From Cenococcum geophilum (Eukaryota), in NCBI GenBank assembly GCA_050273025.1, contig CP158635.1, forward strand, positions 7,440,001 to 7,504,000: DNA of 64,000 nt, written 5' to 3'. Below the pieces are notes generated by a model. It did no database searches. It was not told where the DNA came from and saw only the letters and a list, made by a program, of their open reading frames with translations. Positions 1 through 49,600 of the stretch are shown here, piece after piece. How positions within the stretch are numbered: the first letter of the stretch is position 1; each line of letters opens with the position of its first letter. The translations under genes were made by a program, and so were the position numbers.

Positions 1-1951
1 TATATAGATCCCCTTATTATTAGGGCGTCCTAACCTACGACTTAGGGCTAGGACTTAGCGTTTTCCGTTTCTATATCCGACTCTACTGCTATTACTGCGT
101 CTTTGTCTTATATAGTAGTGGTATATAGCGACGTATTTAGTGTTTGAGGTACTAGGTTAGGTATTAGGCGGTAGCTACTAAACCTAGCTATTAGGCAGTT
201 TAGGCTATAGCTATAACAGCCTTCTTAACAATATCTATAGCAACGCTTTAGCTTTTAAAGTAGCTCGCGTTCTCCATCTAGTAGCTTCTATGGGAAGGTT
301 AGTATAGAAAGGTTAATATTAGGACTAGTAGTGTTGCTTAAGGTAGTAGGCGTTAGTAGTTTAATAGGTCTAGAGGGCTTCTATAGGGAGGTCTTTAGGT
401 AAAGGTTTATAGTAGCGATCTAATTTAGTCGTCGTTTAATCTTCTATATGGCTGCTACTATATTATAAACATTATTATAGTTATAGCTGGCGGCTGCGTA
501 ACTAAGGCAATAAGTGACTTTTTTAAGGAGATCTTTTTAGTCTTTAGTATCGTCTTAGGTGAGGGCTCTAGTGTATTCCTGAAATTTAACATAGAACTTA
601 TCAAATAATTTAGTAGGGCTTATCTTTAGAGTATATAGTTTAGCTTAGTTAGTGGCCAGTAGGTCGTAGTCGCGGTATATTAGGTTAAGATTGTTAAGGA
701 CTTCTTAATAGGACTGCCACTTTTAGGGGCTATTGGTCTCCTATTAGGCGAAGAGTCTATTAAATGGTGTACCCTTTATTTGCCTAATAATATAGCCAAT
801 CTTAGTGTCTTCCGTAGGAAAAAGGCAGGCGCTCTAAGTTAGTTTTTCGCGGATTTGTATCTTCTAATGGCTATATTCTTTGCGGTCTCCCTAGAAAACT
901 AGGGGATTAGGGTAATGTGTATTAGACCCTATAATAGCAGCTTAGGTTTAGTTATTATAGCTTTTATCGTCGCTTTAGTAGGGGTTCCTATTAGGTAAGA
1001 CTGCTTAGCGCTAACCCTCTATTAAGCGTTAAGTAGGTGAAGTTGCTGGGGGCGTAGAGACTTAAGTAGCGTTATATACAGTAGAGAGGTATCTAGCGTT
1101 ATTACGAATATGCTTATTAAGCTAAGATTATAGGTATTTAATTATACCTTCTCTTTTAGTAACCGTAGCAATAAGTACAATCTTAGCCTTCTTTAACTAT
1201 TAGACGTCGCGTTTAGACACACGGAGGTTATCTTCGGTTTCTTAACGCGTGTTATTAGTAAGCGCCTCACGAGCTTATAGGTCTTAGATAATATCGCAAT
1301 CTTAGGTAGTACGCATCTCGGCTTATATAAGCTTTAGGTAGTAGTTCTATAGAAGGCGGTAGTATTTATTAGGTTCTTATGCTACCATTTTTATAAACGT
1401 CTTAGCGTCTTATATTTTAATTTTAATAGGTAGTAGTTCTTCCGCTTATTTATCTATAGTTATATAGTTAATAAAAGATAAGATATTATTAGTGTCTATC
1501 TCCTTAGGGGTTAAGGCTAGGGCTGATAAATCGAATTCTCCTGGGATTGATTGGCGTTGTAGGTTAAGTATAGGTATTGGATTGTTCTTTGGGTTTAATA
1601 TAGTAGCTAATAAGGAATATTGTCTTACTATTATAGGTTCCTTAGAAGTATAAAATAAGGTAACTTATAGGCACGCTGCTTCTGGCAGCGCCTATAGTAT
1701 TACAAAGATATAGAATTGGTCGTAGGCTGGGTGTTAGTGGTAAAAAGGCGCAACGTAATGTTATGGAACGGGGGCAGTGGCTATAAGACGTATGTATTTG
1801 AGGAGTCTACAAGACGTTGCGCGATCGATCGTAAGGGTCGAGGGCGTAAGGAGGTGATATACCTACGCGTAGCTGACATAAGCTATACGCGAGGTGTACG
1901 CGAGAGCACGGGGCTCTCCTATAGAGGCCCCTGCGGTGGGGTTCCGTAACA
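1..1951 (-). mobile_element. Ty3/Gypsy LTR retrotransposon copy A: 5' LTR plus gag, continuing left of the window; RIP-degraded
   Basis: 1-1951 is collinear with ~4997-6963, which runs into protease/RT. It ends in a TG...CA LTR at 1759-1951. Confidence 0.9.
1759..1951 (-). repeat. 5' LTR (193 bp) of Gypsy copy A
   Basis: Inverted termini tgttatggaac...gttccgtaaca; homologous to 6771-6963. Confidence 0.9.
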
Positions 1952-3091
1952 CTTCTATAGTTGTAAGGAGAATATTTTGTTTTCCTTTAGTTCTAGCTAT
2001 AGACGCTAGTACTGGCTTTTCTACTTACAGCTTCAAAGTAAATAGTTAATTGACTTTGTTTCGTATAGAGAATGTATCTAAAGGTTGGTCCTTTTCGTCT
2101 GTAATTAAGACTAGCTTCCTTTCTTGTAGCTGCTTTTTCTTACTTCTAGTAGAGGTAAAACTCCTACTAGAAGAAGAAGGGGTAAAAGGTAGTGATAAGG
2201 AGGGTAGGGAGGACGAAGAAGGGAGGTCCTTCTTTAGCCTTTCTGCGTAGGTTTCCTTAATAGGAGCTACCTCCTTATGGAGAGCTCTTACTTCTTCTAC
2301 TAGTCCTTTTAGGACATCGTTTGCTTTTTCTTTTTTTTCTTCTTCTTCTTGTATAAAGGGTTTTTCTCCTAATAGGATACTTCGTGTATAGTACACTAGC
2401 TGTTTAACTTGTTCTTTTATTTCTTCTTCTTTTTCTTCTTCTAGCCCTATATAGGCCTTAGTTAGGCTATCTAGAGCGAAGCTTAGATGTTGTCCTGGAG
2501 AAAGGGAATCGGTAGGTATACTAGGCGTACTAGCCGTAGTAGTAGTTAGTTTTGTTATCCTTTTTATAGGTTTTTGGTTTTCTTTTTCAGGAGAAGACTA
2601 AGGATATCCTCTTTTTTCTCCTGTCCTAAACAGGCCAAGAGGGGGGGAAGGAGGAGAAATGGTAACTGTAGACTCTTCATCACTTATTTTTATAGGTTTT
2701 TTTTAAACCTATTAGGTCTTGGCATTTTGTATCTTATAGGGGGGTTTCCTAGTTTTTACTATCCTTATACCCTTTCTCCTTACTAATCCTACTAGAAGAT
2801 TTCTAGGGAGATTAGGCTAAAAGGTAGTAGAAAGACTAGCCCCTATTGGTATTAATAGTAGTAGTAGTAGTTTTAGTATTCCTGTCCGTGCCTCGCTTAT
2901 AAGCTAGGACCACCCTTAGAGAAAATTTTCTGTTGGGATAAGGGGGTAAAAAGACAAATAAATCCACCTCTAGCTTGCTAAGCAGTAAGAATTAGGTCTT
3001 GAAAGTTGGAAAATCGATTGTTTTTGATGGTAAGATGGGTATGCGTAAGTTTTGGAGTATGGCGCTACCTTTTAGTAAGGTTGCATGTGCG
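1952..3091 (-). mobile_element. 5' end of a LINE-like element (5' UTR plus ORF1 N-terminus), interrupted by Gypsy copy A
   Basis: ORF 2046-2396 (coiled coil, S-rich, ERKLVLITD..FSIRNKVN) continues as KPVLASIARTKGN, resembling fungal LINE ORF1 proteins. It starts exactly where the RNase H frame of Gypsy B breaks off. Confidence 0.6.
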
Positions 3092-6000
3092 GTAGTTACA
3101 CTCTTATAGTATAAGCTTAGATAAGTAGAATACGACTAGGTAAAGGAGACTATTATTACCCATTTAGAAAAGGATGCCTGCGTTAACGTAGTCTAAGGAG
3201 TTGGTTTTAAGGTAGAGTTGTTATCCTAGTATAAAGTAAGCTAGGACAGGTGCTTTAGTAAAGGCATTTTAAAGGTCTTAGAACGCCTTCTTGCATTTAG
3301 GCGTCTAGGTAAAGCGTAGGTGCGTTTTTCTTCCTTTTATAGAAAAGCCCTTTGTTTACATTATTGCTATAAGTAGTGCTACTACGCTTAAGAAGTTGTA
3401 TATAAATTTCTAATAAAAGTTAGCAAAACTAAGGAAGGCTTATACGTCCTTAATGCAGTTAAGGGCTTACTATTTAGTAATTATATATACCTTCTTAGGG
3501 TCTATACAGACACCCTTAATAGTAATAATTAGTCTAAGGTATTTTACTTCTATAACTAAGAATTTACATTTCTTTAAATTAATATAAAGTCCTATATCTC
3601 TAAGGCGCTATAAGACCTTTTAAACGTGTTCGGTATATTTAAAGGGGTTATTGCTATAAATAAGTATATTATCTAGGTACGCAAAGTAAAAGTTATTAAG
3701 GTAGTTCTATAAGGCGTTATTAATATAGCTTTAGAAGGTGCCTAGGCCGTTATATATACTAAAGGGCATAATAGTATATTTAAATTAGCCGAAGCGTAAT
3801 ACGAATGCGGTTTTCCATTTATTACCTTCCTATATTTAGAGATAGTTAAAGGCGGCAATAATATTAAGCTTAGTATAGATTTTAGCTTAACTAAGCCGCT
3901 TAAGGGTTTTATATATAAGCGGTACTAGGTATTAGTTTTTAATCGTAATAGTATCAAGTCCTTTATAGTTAACGCAGAATTAAATACCTCCTTTTAGCTT
4001 CTTAGTAAGAAGGATAGGGGCAGCTGCTAGTAATATACTAGGACAAATAAATCCTTTATTAAGGTGCTTATTAATATACTTTTTTATAACTAAAAGTTTA
4101 TCTTTTAATATTAGGTAGGGTCTCTTATAAGGTAGTATTTTTCCTTATTTAATATTAATAGTATAGTTATTAGGTTAATATAGGGGGAGTATATCTACGC
4201 TCTTTTATAAGTATATATCGGTAAAGTTATAATACCTCTTAGGGAGGAGCTTACAGAGTTCTTTGTTAGTAAGTCATTTTTTAAGCTTTATAAACTTTTT
4301 AAAGTCTAAAGGTAAAAGTCCGTAGAGTTTTATAGAGGCGTTATCTTTTAGAAAGCCAATTATGTCTATTCTATTACTATAGAGGATATAATCTTATTCT
4401 TTATTAAGCTTATATAATTATAATTAGGAACCTATAGTAACGGTCTAGCCTTTTTTATATACTATATAGTAGAGGGCTAGAGCACTTATATAGTAGTAGT
4501 TAGTTATAGGTAGGGTAATAAGGGGTTCCTTAGGTTAATATCCTAGGGAGTAAATAGGGGCGGCTAGGCTATGCCCTAGGCAAGTCTCTTTATAGTATTT
4601 AGAGTTAAAGGTTACTTCTCTCTTCTTTTAGTTAATGGCGGGGTTATATTATTTAAGCTAGTTTATTTTAAGGATAATAGAGTAGTTAGTAAGTGGTATA
4701 ATATAGGCCTAGAGTTCTTCCTAGTGCCTATTTATATCTAGGTAGAGTTATATTATATAGGTAATCTTCTATATGGTATAATTACTATTAGTAAGTTATA
4801 GGGCGTGGGCTTTAGTAAGGGGTAAGGTAGGTAGGTTATAAGTACGCATAAATTAGGTATTTATAAATTTATTTATAGCTCCGCAATTAATTATAGAACG
4901 GCTTTTATATTATTTTTTAGTAGTAGTTCCTATTATAGGTAAAACTATTTATTTCCGTCTATTTATTTTTATAGAGTTATCTATTAAGTAAGCTAATATA
5001 TAGATCCCTCTATTATTAGGGCGTCCTAACCCGTAACTTAGGGCTAGGACTTAGCGTTTTCTATTTCCGTATCTAACTCTACCGCTATTATTACGTCTTT
5101 ATCTTATATGGTAGTAGCGTATAATAACGTATTTAGTGTTTAGGGCATTAGGTTAGGTATTAAGCGGCAGCTACTAAACCTAGCTATTAGGCAGTTTAGG
5201 TTATTATAATAACAGCCTTTTTAATAGTATCTATAGCAGCGTCCTAGTTTCTAAAGTAGCTCGCGCTCTCTATTTAAGAGTTTTTATAGGAAGGTTAGTA
5301 TAGAGAAATTAATATTGGTTCCGGTAGTACTTAAGGTAATAGGCGTTGGTAGCTTAATATATATAGGTTTAGTAGGCCTAGGGGGCTTCTATAGAGAGGT
5401 CTTTAGGTAAAAGTTAGTAGTAGCAATCTAATTTAGTTATTATTTAATCTTCTATAGAGCTGCTACTATATTATAAAAATAGTTGTAGTTATAGCTGGCG
5501 GCTGCGTAATTAAGGTAATAAGTAACTTTTTTAAGGAGGTCCTCCTAGTTTTTAGTATTGTCTTAGGTAAGGGCTTTAGTATATTCCTAGAATTTAATAT
5601 AGAATTCGTTAAATAATTTAGTAGGGCTTATCTTTAGGGCATGTAGTTTAGCTCGGTTAGTAGCTAGTAGGTTATAGTCGCGGTATATTAGGTTAAGATT
5701 ATTAAGGACTTTTTAGTAGGACTACTACTTTTAGGGGCTACTAGTCTCCTATTAGGCTAAGAGTTTATTAAATAGTATACCCTTTATTCGTCCAATAATA
5801 TAGCTAATCTTAGTGTCTTTTATAGGAAAAAGGCAGGTACTCTAAGTTAGTTTTTTACGGATTTATATCTTCTAGTGGCTATATTCCTTATAGTCTCCCT
5901 AAAAGACTAGGGGATTAGAGTAGCGTATATTAGACCCTATAGTAGTAGTTTAGGTCTAATTATTATAGCTTTTATTATCGCTACTTTATTAAGGGTTCCT

Positions 6001-6963
6001 ATTAGGTAAAGCTGCTTAGCACTAGCCCTCTATTAAGCGTTAAGTAGGTAAAGTTGCCGGGGGTATAAAGACTTAGGTGGCGTTATATATAGTAAAAAGG
6101 TATTTAACGTTGTTATAAATATGCTTATTAAGCTAAGATTATAGGTATTTAATTATGCCTTCTCTTTTAGTAACTATAGCAATTAGTATAATCTTAGCCT
6201 TCTTAAACTGTTAGATATTGCGTTTAGACATATAAAGGTTATCTTTAGTTTCTTAATATATGTTATTAGCGAGCGCCTTATAAGCTTATAGGTCTTAGAT
6301 AATATCGCGATCTTAAGTAGTATATATTTTGGCTTATATAAGCTTTAAGTAATAGTTTTATAGAAGGCGGTAGTATTTATTAGGGTCTTATACTACTATT
6401 TTTACAAACGTCTCGGCGTCTTATATTTCAATTTTAATAGGTAGTAGCCCTTCTGTTTGCTTATCTGTAGTTATATAGTTAATAAAAGATAAAATATTAT
6501 TAGTGTCCGTCTCCTTAGGAGTTAAGGCTAGGGCTAATAAATTAAATTCTCCTAAGATTAATTAGCGTTGTAGGTTAAGTATAGGTATTAGATTATTCTT
6601 TAAGTTTAATATAGTAGCTAGTAAGGGATATTATCTTACTATTATAGGTTCTTTAGAAGTATAAAGTAAGGTAATTTATAAATACGCTGCTTTTAGTAGC
6701 GCCTATAGTATTATAAAGACGTAGAATTAGTTATAGGCTAAGCGTTAGTGGTAAAAAAGGCGTAACGTAATGTTATAGGACGGGGGCAGTGGCTATAAAG
6801 CGTATGTATTCGAGGAGTCTATAAGACGTTACGCGATCGATTGTAAGGGTCAAGGGCGTAAGGAGGTAATATACTTACGCGTAGCTAATATAAGCTGTAC
6901 GCGAGGTATACGTAAGAGCACGGGGCTCTCCTATAGAGGCCCCTGCGGTAGGGTTCTATAATA
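3092..6963 (-). mobile_element. Ty3/Gypsy copy B (same family as A): 5' LTR 6771-6963, gag, protease, RT, start of RNase H; interrupted at 3092
   Basis: Minus-strand RIP'd RT (AYLDNILIY-like, ~3650-3685) and RNase H (DYVNAGIL...FYLSKLIL*ECNY, breaking after ECNY). LTR matches 1759-1951. Confidence 0.9.
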
Positions 6964-39800: not shown

Positions 39801-40491
39801 AGAGGGGATTCCAGGGGGGGTATACTAAAAGGCCTTTGCTATAAGCATAAAAAACTAGTTCTATAACTAAATAGAGAAGAAATATTAGTATACTATTTAG
39901 AATTTAACTTTAAGCTACGTTATATCTAATAAGTAAATTACTACCCTTTATAGCTGCACCTAGTATATAACTAGCTATAAGGCGTTTAAGAAAAACCTAC
40001 CTAATTAGAAGTATAATTAGCTTGGTAATAATCTAAATAAGTTTATTACCTTTATTTAAGCAGAGGTAAAAAAGGCAAATTAGGTAGAGAGCTAGCTATT
40101 AGCATTAGTAAGCAAATTAAAAGATAGCGTAGAGCGGATATTACTACGGCCTAGGGTAGCGGAGAGGCGTACAGTATTAATAGCTTTATGTCTATAAACA
40201 TAAGTAGCCTAGCTACCTTAATTAATATCTGCCGAAAATCCGCATATAGGGCTGCTAATACTATTACATTCTTAGCCTATGTTTAGTAGGAACGCATAGC
40301 TAGCTAGCTTAAACTTTAGCTATTAGAACACCTTTAGGCTAAGTATATTAACACCCTATAATGGATATTAGTCCTAGTAACGTAATAGTTGGGTCTAGTT
40401 TTTAATATAGGGCGGATATCTAGGATCTTAAAGCCAGGCTAGGTATTAATAGCCCTAGGGTAATAATTAGCGTTAGTTATTATTAGATATT

Positions 40492-41000
40492 AAGTATCGG
40501 CCTCTTAGATATTAGGGTCTATACTATAATAATAGATATTAACTCTCTACAGCTCTTAGATATCTAAGTTTATACTATAGTATTAGAAACTAGTCTCTAG
40601 GGTAGGCTAGGTATTATAGCTTATAAGGCAGCTCTGTATTGTAACCCTTAAAACAGTCTAGATATTAGAGCTTATAGCATATTATTAGATCTTAGCCCTT
40701 AAAGCAATCCGGATATTAAAGCTTATAGTATAGTATTAAATCCAAATCCTTAGGGCAGTCTAAGTATTAGAGCTTATAGTGCAATACTAAGTCTTAACTT
40801 TTAGATAAGCCTAAGGTTTAATATTCGCAATATAGCACTAGATCTCCAATTACGAAAAATTCTAAAGTTTAAAATCTATAGCGTAGCACTAGTTCCTAGG
40901 TAGTAGGAAATCTGGAAATTTAGAATTCATAATATAGTATTAGATCTCCACTTCTAGGAAACTTTAAGGCTTAGGGTTTATAGGCTAATACTATAAAGTA
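40492..41000 (+). repeat. Degenerate 51-bp (17-codon) tandem repeat, about 10 units
   Basis: Units start at 40594, 40645, 40696 and 40747, e.g. ccctta..cagtc..tattagagcttatag. More diverged units flank them. Confidence 0.75.
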
Positions 41001-43214
41001 TCTTATCTTTAATTAATTTAGAAAACGAATTATCCTAGGGCTAAGTTGCGCCTTAGAATAAGAAGTAGAAGAGTATAAGTATCTAGGCTCTTCTAGCGCT
41101 AATATATAATATAACCCCCTTAATATACTTAGTAAAATTTAAATACTTAGAAAATAGAAGGAAGTATAAATCCTTATAGATAGCGGAGCTACTAGTATAG
41201 GCTTTATTAATACAAACTATATAAAAACCTAACGCTTAAATTTAAAAAAACTTAATAAGCCCTAAGGCCTATAAGGCTTTAATAGTAAGCCTTTAATATA
41301 CGGCGAACTAACGCACTACGCTCTTATAAAGATGTGGATAGGCAAATACCTTAAATATATTTCCCTATTTATAACACCCTTAAAGCATTATAAGGTAATA
41401 CTTAGATATAGATAGCTAAAATAACATAACCCTTTAATTAGCTAGGTTAAAGAAATACTAAAATTCCGTACAACCTACTACTAAAGTTATTACTTAAAAT
41501 ACTACTTGCCCTATAAATATGCATATAACTATTTAAATTTAATATAATATAAATTACCCTTACTATAAACCTTAAACTAATATAATAAAGTTATAACTAC
41601 TAATCGCGGTAAAGAATGCGAAGATAATATATTAAAACCCCTTAAAATTCATATAATATAAGCCGCACCCTTTTATTTATTAATAAGAAAACAAGACTAT
41701 AAGATATTAAGAAGGCGTTGGAACTAAAGTAATATATTAACCCCTAACCTCTTATACCTAAAGAATATTACAATCTAATTAATTCCGTTTAAAAAATAAT
41801 TTATAGACTAACTACCCCCGTATTAAGATAAGTATAATTTTAAGATAGAATTTAAACCTAGTATAACGCTAGCGTTCGGCCTATTATACGGCATATTGTG
41901 AGAAAAGCTGCTTATAATATAATAATACCTTAAAGAGTGCCTAAAGAAAGGATTTATTTGCCCTAGTTAATTACTATTTACCTTACTTATACTATTTATT
42001 AAGAAACCTAAAGGAGGCTTAAGGTTTTATATTAATTATTAAGCCCTAAATATAATTATAATTTAAAAACGATATCTAATTCCTCTGCTTTAAGAAATAC
42101 TTAACTACTTATTAAAATTATAATACTTTATAAAGCTTAATATAGTTACTGCCTTTAATTAAATCCGTATTTATAAAGGAGATAAGAAGTATATAGCTTT
42201 CTGTATATAATAGGGACTCTTTAAATACCTAGTAATACTATTTAGTGTAAAGAACGGTCCTAGTATATTTTAGTAATACGTTAATAATACGCTTCGCAAA
42301 TTCCTTAATGTATTTATTACCGCGTATATTAATAATATTTTTATCTATTTATCTTCGCTTTCTAGGTATTAAAAGTATATCTAAATAGTCCTTAAATGCC
42401 TATAAGACGCAGTCTTATAATGTGATATTAAAAAATGCAAGTTTTACACGTCTAAAGTTATATACTTAGGCCTAATTATATCCTATAATAGAATTAAAAT
42501 AAACCCTAAGAAAATTGTAGCAATTATAAACTAGGAAAGTCCTAGTAGTATATAAAATATCTAAGGATTTCTAAGATTTATAAATTTCTATTATTAATTT
42601 ATTAATTACTTTTTAAAAATTATTTAGCTATTAGTAAACTTAATAAGGAAGAATATAAAATTTAAATAGACTACTAAATATAAATAAGCTTTTAATAACC
42701 CAAAATATTATTTTATAACTACTCTAATTCTTACCTACTTTAATCTAAACCTTAAATATATTATTAAAATAGACTTATCTAATTATATACTAGAAGGAGT
42801 TTTATTATAATATAATAAGAATAGTAAGCTGCGCCTAGTAGCCTTTCTCTCCCGGAAACTTACCCCTACTAAATTAAACTATAAAATATATAATAAGGAA
42901 CTGCTTATAATTATTAAATGCTTTAAATAATAGCGTCTAGAACTTAGAGAATTGTTATTTCTAATATGCGTATTAACGGACTATAAAAACCTATAGTACT
43001 TTATAACTATAAAGTAATTAATATAATACTAAATTTGTTAGGCTAAATACCTTTTATAATTTAACTTTAAGATTATATACTAACCTAGCAAACTTAACCA
43101 AAAGCTTAACTTATTAATATAATAATTATAAAATTTATTTATAAACCCCTCTAACAAACGGATTATAACTTAATTATAAATTCTACTCCCCCCTAAACGC
43201 TTTAAAAAACTATA

Positions 43215-44331
43215 AAAATGTCTATTCAAAGCGAAGTCACGCCTTCCCTCCGAACAGCAACATCAATATCTATTACAATTAGCCTTTTGGCTTTTCGCTT
43301 TGAAATAAGGCTTATTTGATAGAGATTTTGTTGTTTATTCGTTTTATAGCCTCAATAATACTATGCCATACGGCGCTGTGCTGTCGTCGCGATAAAACGT
43401 CTTACCCCTTGGAGAATCGCGAACCCATAAACAGCTTCGCGATTTATTATGAATAGCCTTGTAATTTATTACGAACAGCTTCGCGATTTCCATAAGCTAT
43501 TAATAAGTAGTCTTTCCTGATAATTTTTCCCATAGGGTTTTTTAACAGGTTTTGAATTGACGCTTTCTAGCTTCCTACGTCGTCGTCGTTAATAGCCTTC
43601 GATATTTACCTACCCGAACGGTTTTTAACGATACTCTATATAAAGAGACGACATATATTCCTACTTCTATGGTTATTGGGCGTAGGCCTTATACCGCTAG
43701 GTTTTGGCGGTACGTAAGTAATTATCTACCACTGCATAGCAGGCTGAGGCGAGATTACCTAAACGGTCTTCGATACCCCACGGGCGCAAAGAGATGATAT
43801 ATTCTTACTTCTATATTGGTTGTTGGGCGCAGGCCTCGTACCACTACCTTCTGGCGGTACGCGTTGTTTGGGGTAATGAGTGTGTAATCATCTACCGCTG
43901 CTTGAGATAGTAGGGAACCTATGCAATACAGCAGGCTGAGATAATTACCCTCTCCTCGGGCCTACACCCCCCAATATAATACATTATTTAGAATATATCT
44001 CTATCTCTACAAGCAAGTAAATAGATAAAAATGTCTATTTAAAGCGAAGTTACGCCTTCCCTCCAAACAGCAACATTAATATCTATTACAATCAGCCTTT
44101 CGGCTTTTCGCTTTCCCACCCTCCACCCTATAGATAGATTTTGCAGCCTCTTAGGCTTGCGGTAGGCCCGAGTGGGGCAATGAGTGTGTAATCATCTACC
44201 GCTGCTTGAGACAGTAGGGAACCTATGCAATACAGCAGGCTGAGATGATTACCCTCTCCTCGGGCCTACACCCCCCAATACAATACATTATTTAGAATAT
44301 ATCTCTATCTCTGCGAGCAAGTGAATAGATA
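43215..44331. mobile_element. Non-coding 1117-bp insertion with split direct repeats (A1..B1-A2..B2), Ngaro/PAT-like architecture
   Basis: A1 43215-43301 = A2 44028-44114; B1 43869-44027 = B2 44173-44331. The host Gypsy frame rejoins across it. Confidence 0.75.
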
Positions 44332-46286
44332 CCTTATATTTTTAAATGCGGAGCTTAATAGGAATAAATTAGAAATTAATAAGTGGGATATAAAAATTAA
44401 TAAATTAATAGAACATAAATATAAGAATAACCCCTAAATAGCAAATGTAATAAAAACGATTTAAATAGAAAAACGGTAATATAAGAATATTACACTCGCT
44501 AAATACGAAATCTATAATAATTAGTTATATTATTAATAGAAAATAGTAAGCCCAAATTCTAAACCCTTATAATTTAAGATACTCGAATTTATATATAATT
44601 CCCCTATAGTAGGGCATCCTAGCTATATAAAGACGTATAAGATTATCTAATAAGTATATTACTAGCCTATAATATATAACCATATATGAAAATATGTTTA
44701 AGTATACGGAATAAATATATATAGGAAGACCCCTTATATAAAGAAGTAAAGAGTACTTTAACCGTTACTAATTCTAATATAAAGATAGTAAGATATTTTA
44801 ATTAACTTTGTAGTTAACCTGCCTAATAGTAATAGGTTTATAAATATTATAGTAGTTATTAACCGTCTTATAAAAATGCGATATATAATTCCTATAGACT
44901 TAATTAATGTAATATTAGTAGCTAAATATTTTATTAAGTACGTCTTTAAGCTATATAGACTTTCTAATTTAATAATATCTAACTACGGAAGCTAGTTTAT
45001 TTTAGACTTCTAGAAAGCTTTATATAAACGATTAAGTATATAAATATAACTCTTAACTGCATTTTATCTAGAGATAGATAGTTAAATTAAAATTGCGAAC
45101 GTAATTATAGAATAATACCTATAAATATACTGTTCCTACCTACAAGACGACTAGGAAAAGTGGCTATCTTTAGCTAAGTTTACTGCAAATAATATAAGAA
45201 ATAAATTAATAGGCGTAACGCCGTTCTATGTAACCTATAGATAAGACCCTTAACTTAGATTTAAACTATAACCTAAAATTAATATAATAGAATCTATAAT
45301 TAAGAGGATTTAACTAATTAATGCGTATAACTTTATTAATTAAATAAAGTAGTTAACGGAATTATTATAAAGTGAATTAGCGTACGCTTAAATAGTATAG
45401 CAATAGCATATAAATAAAGGACGAGCTCTTATATAGGACTTTAAGGAAGGTAATATAGTTTACCTAAATATATAAAACCTAAAGACTTAACGACCCTTAA
45501 AGAAACTAGACTAAAAGTTTACGGGCCTATACTAAATTAAGAAGAAACTAAGTCTATACACTTATAAACTTAAACTGCCGACTAAGATAAAAATATATCT
45601 AATATTTTATATAAACTTACTATAACCCTTAAAAAGTAAACCTATAACTCGTGAAGTGCTACTACTACCTCCTATAATTATTAACAACGGTAATAGTTCT
45701 TACTTTATTAACTTAATTAATAATATATAATAGAAAAACATAGTCTAAATAATTTAAACTTCTTATTAAATAGGAAAAATATAAAATATAAACCTAGGAA
45801 CCTTATAAGCAAATTAAAACTAATACGCCTTCCCTAGTAAAAGAATTCTATAAGGACTATTCTTTACGGCCTACTTTAGCTAGATAAATACGATATAAAA
45901 GTAAATAATTACCACCTAATATAAATACACTAAACACGATAGTAGGAAGCTTAAAATTAAAAAGGACTTAAAATATATTATAACGCTTATAACACGGTTA
46001 TATAATACGTAAGATATTAAAGAACTTTAACTAGCGGTTAAAGTTGTCTAATTAGTTAGATTTGCTTTGCTAAGACCTACTATAAAGATATTAGTTCTGC
46101 TTACCGCCTTAACTAAGCTAATAGCGATTTCTTATCCTAGGGATAGAAAATCCTAATTAGTCTATTTATGATTAGAACTGGTAAAACGCTATACTACTAC
46201 CTAATACAAATATATAAAAACGTAATAAGTTATAAAGTCTTAACCAAATTAAATTGTTTTAGACCTTCGGCTAAAGGGGGAGGTAC

Positions 46287-46629
46287 TATAATAGGACTAG
46301 CCCAGTTATAGTAGGAATGTCTTAGTAAAATACTTAATAGATAAATTCTAACGCTTTAACCAAATTCTACCGAATTATGCTAGCTTAATTAACCTCTACT
46401 AAGTTCTACTAGATTAGTTAAATTCTATTAAAGTTAGTTAAAGACCGCGTATATATATGCGCATGTATCGACTACTAAGACCCTAACTATTTAATATATA
46501 ACTCTCTTGTTATTCCCTTCTCCTCTTTACGCAACGTCTTATTCTTAGCGAGAGCTATATACCCTTAGATTTAGATAGAATATATATCGTTCCTTCGAAT
46601 CTTCCCCGAAGTCTCTTCACGCCCTTACA
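46287..46629 (+). repeat. 3' LTR (343 bp) of the truncated Gypsy
   Basis: Follows the PPT; tataa...ttaca termini. Confidence 0.8.
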
Positions 46630-49600
46630 CTATAGCATTAAAAAGAAAATATAATTTCGTTTTAGTATAATCTACTAAAGAATGCTAAAGGGGCAAGAGG
46701 AAATAGTAGTTTGTATAGCGCTTACTAATTTTAATAAATTATAATTACTGGTTGCTTAGAGGACTCTAAGTAGTTTCCTAAAGCTTAATTTACTAAACTA
46801 TACTTTTATAAACGTGTCTCTAATATATTATCTGCAAGTTATTACTAATATAGAAATTAACACTATGCCAAGGGTCGTTAAAGCGCATGGCCTATCTCTA
46901 TAAATTCCTATTATCTAGATGGCCTAGCACTAAAGCACCGTTTATTTTCTAGTTAGTATATCTCTAAATATCTAACCGACCTCTTCTGTTGCTTTAGTAT
47001 ATAAAAGAATATAAGTATACCTAGCTGCACTGCTAATACATATAGGAGGTTAAAAGGTCGTAAGAAGCTTACACCCTATATAGTAAATCTTTATACGTAA
47101 GAGTAATACCTATTATTAGGAATACTAATAACCCTAGCCCCTCTCCGCTAGCTTACTTTATACTTATACCTTAGAACAATCTAGTAAAACTACGCTAGAT
47201 TCCAAGCCTTAAAAGCGGCGTTTCTTTAGAATATAAACTCTAGCAGTCTGGGCCAATTATATAATATTTTATACATGTTTGTTAGATAAAGAGCTCTAAT
47301 TAATTAGGGCAAGATACAGCCATCTATTACTAAAAAGCCACTTATATTCTAAGCTGTGCTATATTAATAACGCTCTATAGAGAAGTCTCGGCTAATTTTC
47401 AGGGTCTATATAATCCCCACGCCTATTTTAACTTCTCCCTTAATTAATTTACATTTATATCTTCCTAATCCTCTTCCCGAAAAGGTCCATATAACTACTA
47501 TTTATAAATATTCTTTAAGCATACTAGGAAGAGCAAAAGTAAGTTGGGATAGGGTAAGTTCGTTTTCTTTATAAGCTATAGAATCCTAAACTATATTATT
47601 TAGTTGGCAAAGAGCCCCTTTTTATAGTTATTAGACGCAAAGACTTTCTATTACACAATTATTATATTATTACTCTAGAATTAACTAGACGTTTATTACT
47701 ATTACTAATTCTTAGTCCTATAGATATCCCGTATAAATACCCAAACTTATCTATAATAGATAAATTAACAAGATAACTAGAGATACAGGAAAATTAATAC
47801 ATTAATAGTTTAGTATGCTAGAGAATTAGATGCAAACGCTTTATTAAACTCTATTTACCGGATATAGACTCTATCTATTAGAGCGTATATATTATTATTT
47901 TTTATCTTATTTACTCCCTTTAGAGTAGGGAATATTATAGTTCTGGTGTTATCCCGAAGGTCTAAGTAAAATAAAGAATATAAAGAGATATATATTATAG
48001 CATTATATTTACAATTATTTAGAAACAGCTAACTAAGATAAGGAAGATGCAATAATACTAGTTAAGAGGGGGTTGGTAGTGTATACTATACGGGACTAGA
48101 AATTAGGAATAGCGTTACTTTAAGGGTCTTACTAGGGAAGTAGGTTTAAAGGGCTATTCTAAAGTACGCTAGCAATAATACTAAGGTCGGAGCATATTAT
48201 ATAATGCTTATCTTTACCGCTAGGTAACCCTAACACGCTAGGCTCTGTTGGCTATTGCTAAACCCAGTATATAGTATACGTGGAATTAGTCTACAGATCC
48301 GTAGGTACTAATAGATTAGTCTTGCACTATTGTTTATAGGTAGACCTTAGTTAGCTAGAGATAGGGTCGGGAAACTAATTCTAACGTATTATAGAAATAC
48401 TACCATTATTAATTTGATAACATCTATTATTATTAAAATTTTAAGTAGTTAATAGTTTCCCTTTCTGGTTACCGCTAGTACCGTTAAATATCCACTATAG
48501 GACGTCTACTAATACTTTACTATTACTTGGCTAAGATATACTAAATACATAGACTATTCTACCTACTTTTGGCTTACCTAGCTAGGTTTACAGTAGTATA
48601 ATATATTTATTTTTAAGGTACTTTATAGCTATATAAGCTCCTAGTAATATATTAAGTCGCGGAAATATTACAGTTTAGTTAGCGGTTCTCTATATTAGAG
48701 TATATAAAAGATCTAAGCCATTTACCCTTATCCTTTCTAAAGCTAAAGGTGGTAAAAGATAAGTCATTATATTATCGTTAAAGCCCGGATCACTGCAAGA
48801 GACATATCCGCGAGGATATCCATTACTTCCTATAAAACTCCGTTAGAAACTACCGTAAGTTGTTTATTCTAAGCGTGTATAAGCCCTAGAAGAGCAGTAG
48901 GAAAAAGGTAGAAGATTAAATATATAATAGTGGACAAAGTATAAGAATTAGTAAATATAAATTAGTTTAAGGCTCGCAGCGTATCTAAAGATATATCTGT
49001 TCTCACTAAGGTATATTACGCTTATATAACCATTTAGTAAGGATCTAACTCTATTACTTTAGGCAGAATAGTTAAGAGCAATACTAAACCGTACATATTC
49101 TATTTCCTCCTTTATTCTAATAATATAGCTTACTTTAAAGCTTAATATACACCAAGTAGGCACTTAAAATAATGGCTACTAATTTCCCCGCACGTAGACC
49201 GATTTATATACTCTTTTATTTATATAGATATAATTAAAGCATTATATAAAAAGGACTAGCATTAATAAATATTAAACTTATAAAGGTAATTGCCTTATAA
49301 CTTATCCCGCTCTATATTACTAAAGGCTAAAAAGACAGAGTAATTATAACTCTATTGCGACTCTTACGGGATTTAATATATATACTCTTATATACCTATA
49401 ACCAAGCCACTAAAACTAAAGATAGACTTTTAATATACTGTTAACGAGAGGTATAGTGGTGCCACTAGTACTAAATATTAAATATTTATTAATTGGATAT
49501 CCGTGCACTAATTATAAAAAAAGAATAAGGACTCTATCTATTAAATATAGCTCTAAGAGTCTCTATATATATATAAGAAAGGTATAGGAAACAAGAACGA

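Follow-up and report, generated by a model that had tools for sequence, protein, structure and literature searches.

A multicopy family of gene-free elements with split direct repeats in Cenococcum geophilum, probably moved in the manner of Ngaro-like retrotransposons

The window, a 64,000-nucleotide stretch of the Cenococcum geophilum genome (contig CP158635.1, positions 7,440,001 to 7,504,000), contains a Gypsy pol relic that is broken by an element without genes, 1,117 bp long (window 43213-44329), in which two pairs of direct repeats are laid out in the order A1-I1-B1-A2-I2-B2. The locus raises the question of how an element of this kind moved, and with whose enzymes. A sequence-only reading had taken it for a parasite of a tyrosine recombinase (YR) retrotransposon, an interpretation that the results below partly support. 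The features on which the argument depends are as follows.

40000..47000, + strand: host, a RIP-mutated Gypsy pol relic broken by the element, with RVT_1, RT_RNaseH, Integrase_H2C2 and SH3_Tf2-1 domains (coordinates of the stretch scanned, not the limits of the host)
43213..44329, + strand: whole element, non-coding, 1,117 bp; the host A at 43212 is the common crossover base
43213..43301, + strand: repeat A1, which begins TAAAAATG
43302..43868, + strand: internal segment I1, which is non-coding and contains a duplication; differs among subfamilies
43586..43622, + strand: 'site 2' in I1, a predicted stem-loop with a cryptic ATA at 43602-43604, where two permuted copies elsewhere open exactly
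43642..43759, + strand: duplicated I1 end (43642-43713) joined to a shortened B start (43714-43759)
43869..44025, + strand: repeat B1, which terminates AATAGA
44018..44041, + strand: internal B|A junction, an inverted pair TGAATAGA/TCTATTCA with 8-bp arms around a spacer of 8 bp and with its ATA core at 44025-44027
44026..44114, + strand: repeat A2
44115..44172, + strand: spacer I2, 58 bp, strongly conserved; long predicted stem with B2 (z -3.99)
44173..44329, + strand: repeat B2, which terminates GAATAGA

The repeat order was borne out by alignment. A1 and A2 are 93% similar (43212-43301 against 44025-44114), B1 and B2 are 96% similar (43869-44027 against 44173-44331), and every one of the 13 mismatches is a C:G>T:A transition. 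What had been taken for a third B-like block at about 43655-43760 is the I1-end duplicate followed by the shortened B start. The element had also been said to lack any open reading frame of 60 amino acids or more, which holds for frames that start with ATG but not for stop-to-stop frames, two of which reach 78 and 68 aa. No conserved open reading frame was found across 71 composite elements; the longest ATG frames (86, 82, and 62 aa) occurred in three copies, and none was common to the family. The host frame rejoins across the element as proposed: the RT-RH part to the left and the integrase part to the right belong to a single frame that spans the site, and a paralogous empty site shows neither gain nor loss of sequence. 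The RIP composite index was 1.24 and 1.28 in the flanks versus 0.21 within the element. Elsewhere in the window, positions 1-6956 hold a direct repeat of ca. 1.95 kb (1-1944 versus 4997-6956, 85%) together with further nested RIP-mutated repeats, and the entire 64 kb contains a single stop-free frame of at least 150 aa.

The element belongs to a real, well-defined family. A DNA search of the genome yielded at least 33 near-full-length matches among the 40 scored of 95 candidates, and the A-B layout was present in all 30 of the best-matching loci retrieved. Pattern searches of the genome found 142 A starts and 68 I2 sites, with no matches in reversed controls. The genome holds about 46 composites (43 retrieved, one with a clipped A1, and 3 known by coordinates alone), about 28 solos (14 A-I1-B and 14 A-I2-B), 3 tandem arrays, 1 permuted copy, and 9 fragments. 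In three metagenome assemblies, 54 of 56 junction matches were to the same family, some of them at loci clipped by contig ends, and no outer insertion site was common to genome and metagenome loci. Most of the apparent coincidences of site among the loci compared were artefacts, the flanks there being themselves element sequence. Viral contigs gave no matches to the element. Subfamilies range in length from about 960 to 1,117 bp. The expectation of a multicopy family with fixed ends was therefore confirmed, and a single-copy deletion derivative is contradicted. Some solos are identical to composites and three A-I2-B solos are nearer one another; solos may arise either by recombination in place or by transposition of their own.

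Several loci were set aside. L098 and L113 were chance pattern matches. Six fragments consisting of A plus 30 bp with one common flank proved to be a captured piece of a larger repeat: the A repeat and ca. 30 bp had been taken up by a repeat exceeding 9.9 kb, which was then amplified to at least six copies (L032, L035, L036, L040, L052, and L054). Other loci had features of their own. For example, two lightly mutated copies (L228:8380-9342 and L230:8429-9391) lie in GC-richer DNA without the appearance of RIP and may interrupt genes. The element at L011 borders on the second of two ca. 65-bp repeats that lie ca. 330 bp apart (L011:1110-1501), a pattern that recurs at many genome sites and probably represents a TRIM-like family.

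The ends of the copies reveal how insertion occurs. ATA was found at the left flank in 30 of 30 copies; at the right end, GATA was found in 17 of 30, with one further RIP-type variant, and the remaining 12 differed. Paralogous empty sites were available for 16 insertions, of which 14 showed zero gain or loss and two (L024 and L029) were unresolved. Right ends other than ATA followed the empty site in six of six cases, allowing for C>T. The element is therefore delimited by TAAAAATG and GAATAGA, a single A being shared with the host, and in the window it occupies 43213-44329 rather than the 43215..44331 first proposed; the left TA belongs to the element and the last TA (44330-44331) to the host. 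After exclusion of 19 loci that were permuted, truncated, captured, or chance matches, the left ends (n = 117) read T in 97, A in 101, and T in 97, followed by the shared A in 116, and the right flanks (n = 103) read T in 89 and A in 65, against a background of 30-49% at the target positions. The family inserts at a TAT|ATA-like target, with the left ATA contributed by the element and the right trinucleotide by the target. It thereby follows the trinucleotide rule proposed for YR retrotransposons. That one trinucleotide is contributed by the element and another by the target, whose copy need not match, is stated for DIRS elements in the relevant part of PMC7192593. Insertions of different subfamilies at the identical nucleotide of paralogous host repeats (L039 and L202) suggest a target preference wider than the 6-bp motif.

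TRIM and LTR elements have LTRs bounded by TG..CA and generate target site duplications (TSDs) of 4 to 6 bp, and SINEs have a head derived from tRNA, 5S, or 7SL RNA, a variable tail, and a TSD. The family has no TSD, no TG..CA ends, and no poly(A) tail, and its ends are exact in more than 100 insertions. The lack of a true TSD and of TG..CA ends, both claimed at the outset, is upheld by the ends and by the paralogous empty sites; of the further claim that there are no terminal inverted repeats, it can be said that no long one exists, but a short inverted pair is present at the junction. No tRNA-, 5S-, or 7SL-derived head was found in the element, and an Rfam search of it returned no family, ribozyme, or tRNA at E<=1. 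Derivation from an LTR/TRIM or LINE/SINE element, or a chance tandem duplication, might be considered given the small size, the lack of coding capacity, and an LTR-like homogenization of the repeats, but these structural absences, and the empty-site data, which contradict an LTR or SINE, make it very improbable. The description 'TRIM/SINE-like parasite' survives as an analogy in size and dependence only.

The two copies of each repeat within an element evolve in concert. Across 68 composites, the within-element distance between A1 and A2 was 0.13 events versus 0.32 when elements were shuffled (transitions ignored), and that between B1 and B2 was 1.21 versus 2.99. None of 10,000 shuffles reached the observed A or B distance, a contrast that is inflated by the relatedness of the copies and is not a P value. 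A tally by alignment column says more: about ten variant blocks were common to two or more elements, and these were in both repeats save for three element-cases (71 A and 70 B composites). For example, an A>G change in the spacer was in both repeats in eight of eight elements, and the window element's own 3-bp deletion is in B1 and B2 alike. Private one-sided variants also occur, as expected for changes after insertion. It looks as if both repeats are rebuilt from one template at every jump, although occasional gene conversion could also homogenize them.

The internal junction had been interpreted as the product of circularization. The junction does act like a donor site, and the permuted copies are indirect signs of circles. 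Its inverted 8-bp arms and 8-bp spacer resemble the YR sites described in the pertinent portion of PMC3212892. The junction hairpin has a predicted z of -2.49, and just ATAGA/TCTAT (five bases) remains paired in one subfamily. The predicted fold of site 2 is not significant (z -1.26). When 14 A-I2-B units were analyzed with RNAalifold, the covariation term was -0.17, which is uninformative because of RIP. At two loci, L056 and L069, which differ in subfamily and place, the copy is A-I1-B in exact circular permutation, opened both times at the site 2 ATA. Two clean empty sites, both CTA|TAG in type, were found for L069 and none for L056 in the data examined. The form of these copies implies that circles or multimers were integrated by what would be the same ATA chemistry. 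Because there are 7 to 9 GATA sites per unit, the shared opening site is at most suggestive. One observation speaks against the circle model: the two B|A junctions of a double-stranded circle are equivalent, yet no isolated composites with I2 first were seen among the loci compared.

At a further locus, L031 (G000:C3:18454340-18463521, minus strand), an 8.1-kb RIP-mutated Helitron-like element interrupts a mini element in its second site-2 motif, a position paralogous to the opening point of the permuted copies. With a length of 9.2 kb, L031 was considered as a long candidate partner, but it is a mini element plus this nested insert (DUF6570, Helitron_like_N, and PIF1) and not a partner. Every other singleton retrieved was a solo or a fragment.

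Hairpins at the junction and at site 2 could instead be nick sites of a rolling-circle (HUH, Helitron-like) parasite that transfers a single strand. Helitron 3' ends read CTRR, but the 3' end of the element's minus strand is TTTA and no CTRR end is present; furthermore, no flank capture was seen at the element ends, the local Helitron-like ends are unlike the element's, and rolling-circle transfer does not predict concerted repeats. On the other hand, the spacer of the donor lies on the same side in every case, the genome contains Helitron-like elements, one of them within the site-2 paralogue, and the minus strand begins TC, mostly between A and T, where insertion of Helitrons at AT or TT is described in the cited part of PMC10288648. 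We consider such a parasite quite unlikely. Replitrons, as characterized in the same portion of that source, have short direct terminal repeats; no such repeats were found in the family, the two termini of which differ.

Split-direct-repeat YR retrotransposons encode an RT, an RH, and a YR, none of which the element carries. The partner that had been expected, a longer RT-RH-YR element sharing A and B, did not emerge: no long coding element with A/B was found among the I2 sites and A starts traced (100 of the 142 A matches were listed). Genome-wide profile searches for PF00589 and for PF05869 (the methyltransferase of DIRS/PAT helpers) each returned no candidates, and both are weak tests on RIP-mutated DNA.

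One locus, L125, associates the family with a recombinase gene. There, a truncated B1-A2-I2-B2 lies ca. 650 bp upstream of a broken captain of the DUF3435-plus-chromo type that reads inward. The captain (L125:1390-6400; C1 near 2.818-2.823 Mb), of which a 125-aa piece is 84% identical to a DUF3435-plus-chromo protein labelled Chlorociboria, is possibly a relic of a horizontally acquired Starship. Its gene is single-copy in the genome, and the B2 end at this locus sits at an ordinary target, the host sequence having an empty paralogue in L232. Neither A1 nor a continuation of the host was found within the next ca. 128 kb. Element parts were found at none of 50 other YR loci, and captain similarity at no other element locus. 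As a single association, L125 is a lead only. Downstream of the captain (L125:7000-7500) lies a relic of a BIR (inhibitor of apoptosis) domain beside proline-rich repeats. Among the DUF3435 relics elsewhere in the genome, many of which are multicopy, one copy (C3:7969165-7970527) contains just one stop and is perhaps recent.

It is conceivable that the family is a non-autonomous DNA element that travels as excised circles with the help of a tyrosine recombinase resident in the genome, either a Starship DUF3435 captain or a Crypton, in which case A-I1-B and A-I2-B would be modules and the composite a heterodimer. The solos, tandems, permuted circles, and lox-like junction fit such a mechanism, and the genome is rich in DUF3435 relics (at least 165 matches among 100 scored candidates). 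The spacing between element end and captain at L125 does not exceed what is stated for the 5' ends of Starships in the section cited from PMC11162782, and captains act in trans and without a TSD according to part of PMC10104507. However, a DUF3435 captain just inside the 5' end, the arrangement of Starships, may be present at this one locus, where the captain is single-copy and no A1 or host continuation follows, and the 50 other YR loci lack element parts. Local Crypton junctions also differ, as seven Crypton/YR stretches and two array junctions share no ends with the family, and cut-and-paste movement does not predict concerted repeats or the I1-then-I2 order. We therefore regard such a DNA element as unlikely. 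It seems to us similarly doubtful that there was no Ngaro parent and that the parasite borrows a Starship-type (DUF3435) or Crypton recombinase, with or without the RT of another retroelement, with L125 as the relic of a captain-bearing master.

Part of the element sequence was contained in 20 of 24 listed RNA runs. The four runs examined yielded 52 raw reads, the majority of which derived from a diverged fragment that is part of a different transcript; less-mutated variants appeared in one contig set. An element transcript was not shown by the reads in these four runs; contigs cannot show transcript ends, and the B-to-A joint seen there is indistinguishable from the internal junction.

Overall, the structure, insertion rule, and repeat behavior make it probable that the family consists of miniature Ngaro-like retroelements that are non-autonomous and operate in the way of the split-direct-repeat YR retrotransposons (Ngaro, PAT, and VIPER). 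Membership in that group is unproven because coding features are missing and no partner is known. In the proposed cycle, a transcript without the outer parts of A1 and B2 would be reverse transcribed by a helper RT, with the internal B1|A2 join serving as the template for the missing ends and closing the circle. A helper tyrosine recombinase would then cross the ATA core into the target. Repeats or junctions recombining in place would give rise to the solo and tandem forms, and the small circles released could reintegrate, sometimes via the cryptic site 2. The helper may be extinct or erased by RIP.

The replication model for split-repeat YR elements, which is said to go back to Goodwin and Poulter in 2004, rests mostly on structure. 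The more than 100 natural insertions of this family allow the predictions of that model to be examined in nature: the origin of the donor trinucleotide, homogenization of the repeats per jump, and integration of permuted circles at a cryptic site. An element of ca. 1 kb would also be a minimal cis-substrate for an assay. The family implies that a Ngaro-like helper was once active in a filamentous ascomycete, the kind of host to which RIP and the DUF3435 relics point; should the helper have been a Starship captain, this would connect two types of mobile element that are not related to each other. In the literature, most subscription papers and Repbase aside, we found no fungal split-repeat element that is both miniature and non-autonomous.

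TOC1 of the alga Chlamydomonas reinhardtii, which is several kilobases long in contrast to 0.96-1.12 kb for the fungal family, presumably shares with the family a split-repeat layout with a spacer and the lack of a TSD; it has autonomous relatives (TOC3), and no counterpart of these was found here. The portion of PMC9940879 that deals with TOC1 treats it as a non-autonomous DIRS-order retrotransposon, as the fungal family would be. Cryptons and Starships resemble the family in lacking a TSD, in microhomology between donor and target, and in their proposed circles (parts of PMC3212892, PMC10104507, and PMC9977147), but those parts describe no long split repeats, and local copies share ends with the family only through the juxtaposition at L125. 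Ngaro elements have A1...B1A2B2 repeats and solo AB repeats, as described in excerpts of PMC8547959, PMC3783388, and PMC4502367, the solo repeats being those of Cafeteria (PMC8547959). In ascomycetes Ngaro appears rare: the sections concerned report a single remnant (PMC3783388) and a single family, from Zymoseptoria (PMC4502367). The Ngaro elements of Cafeteria, basidiomycetes, and Zymoseptoria tritici encode Gag, RT-RH, and YR, whereas the present family is without coding sequence and carries a conserved 58-bp spacer that separates A2 from B2. SIRE of Trypanosoma cruzi, which consists of A2, ca. 30 bp, and B2 of VIPER according to the passage cited from PMC6681497, is built in the same way as the A-I2-B solos. 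The parent of which SIRE is a solo is a coding element, whereas here the parent is itself non-coding and is accompanied by A-I1-B solos and permuted copies.
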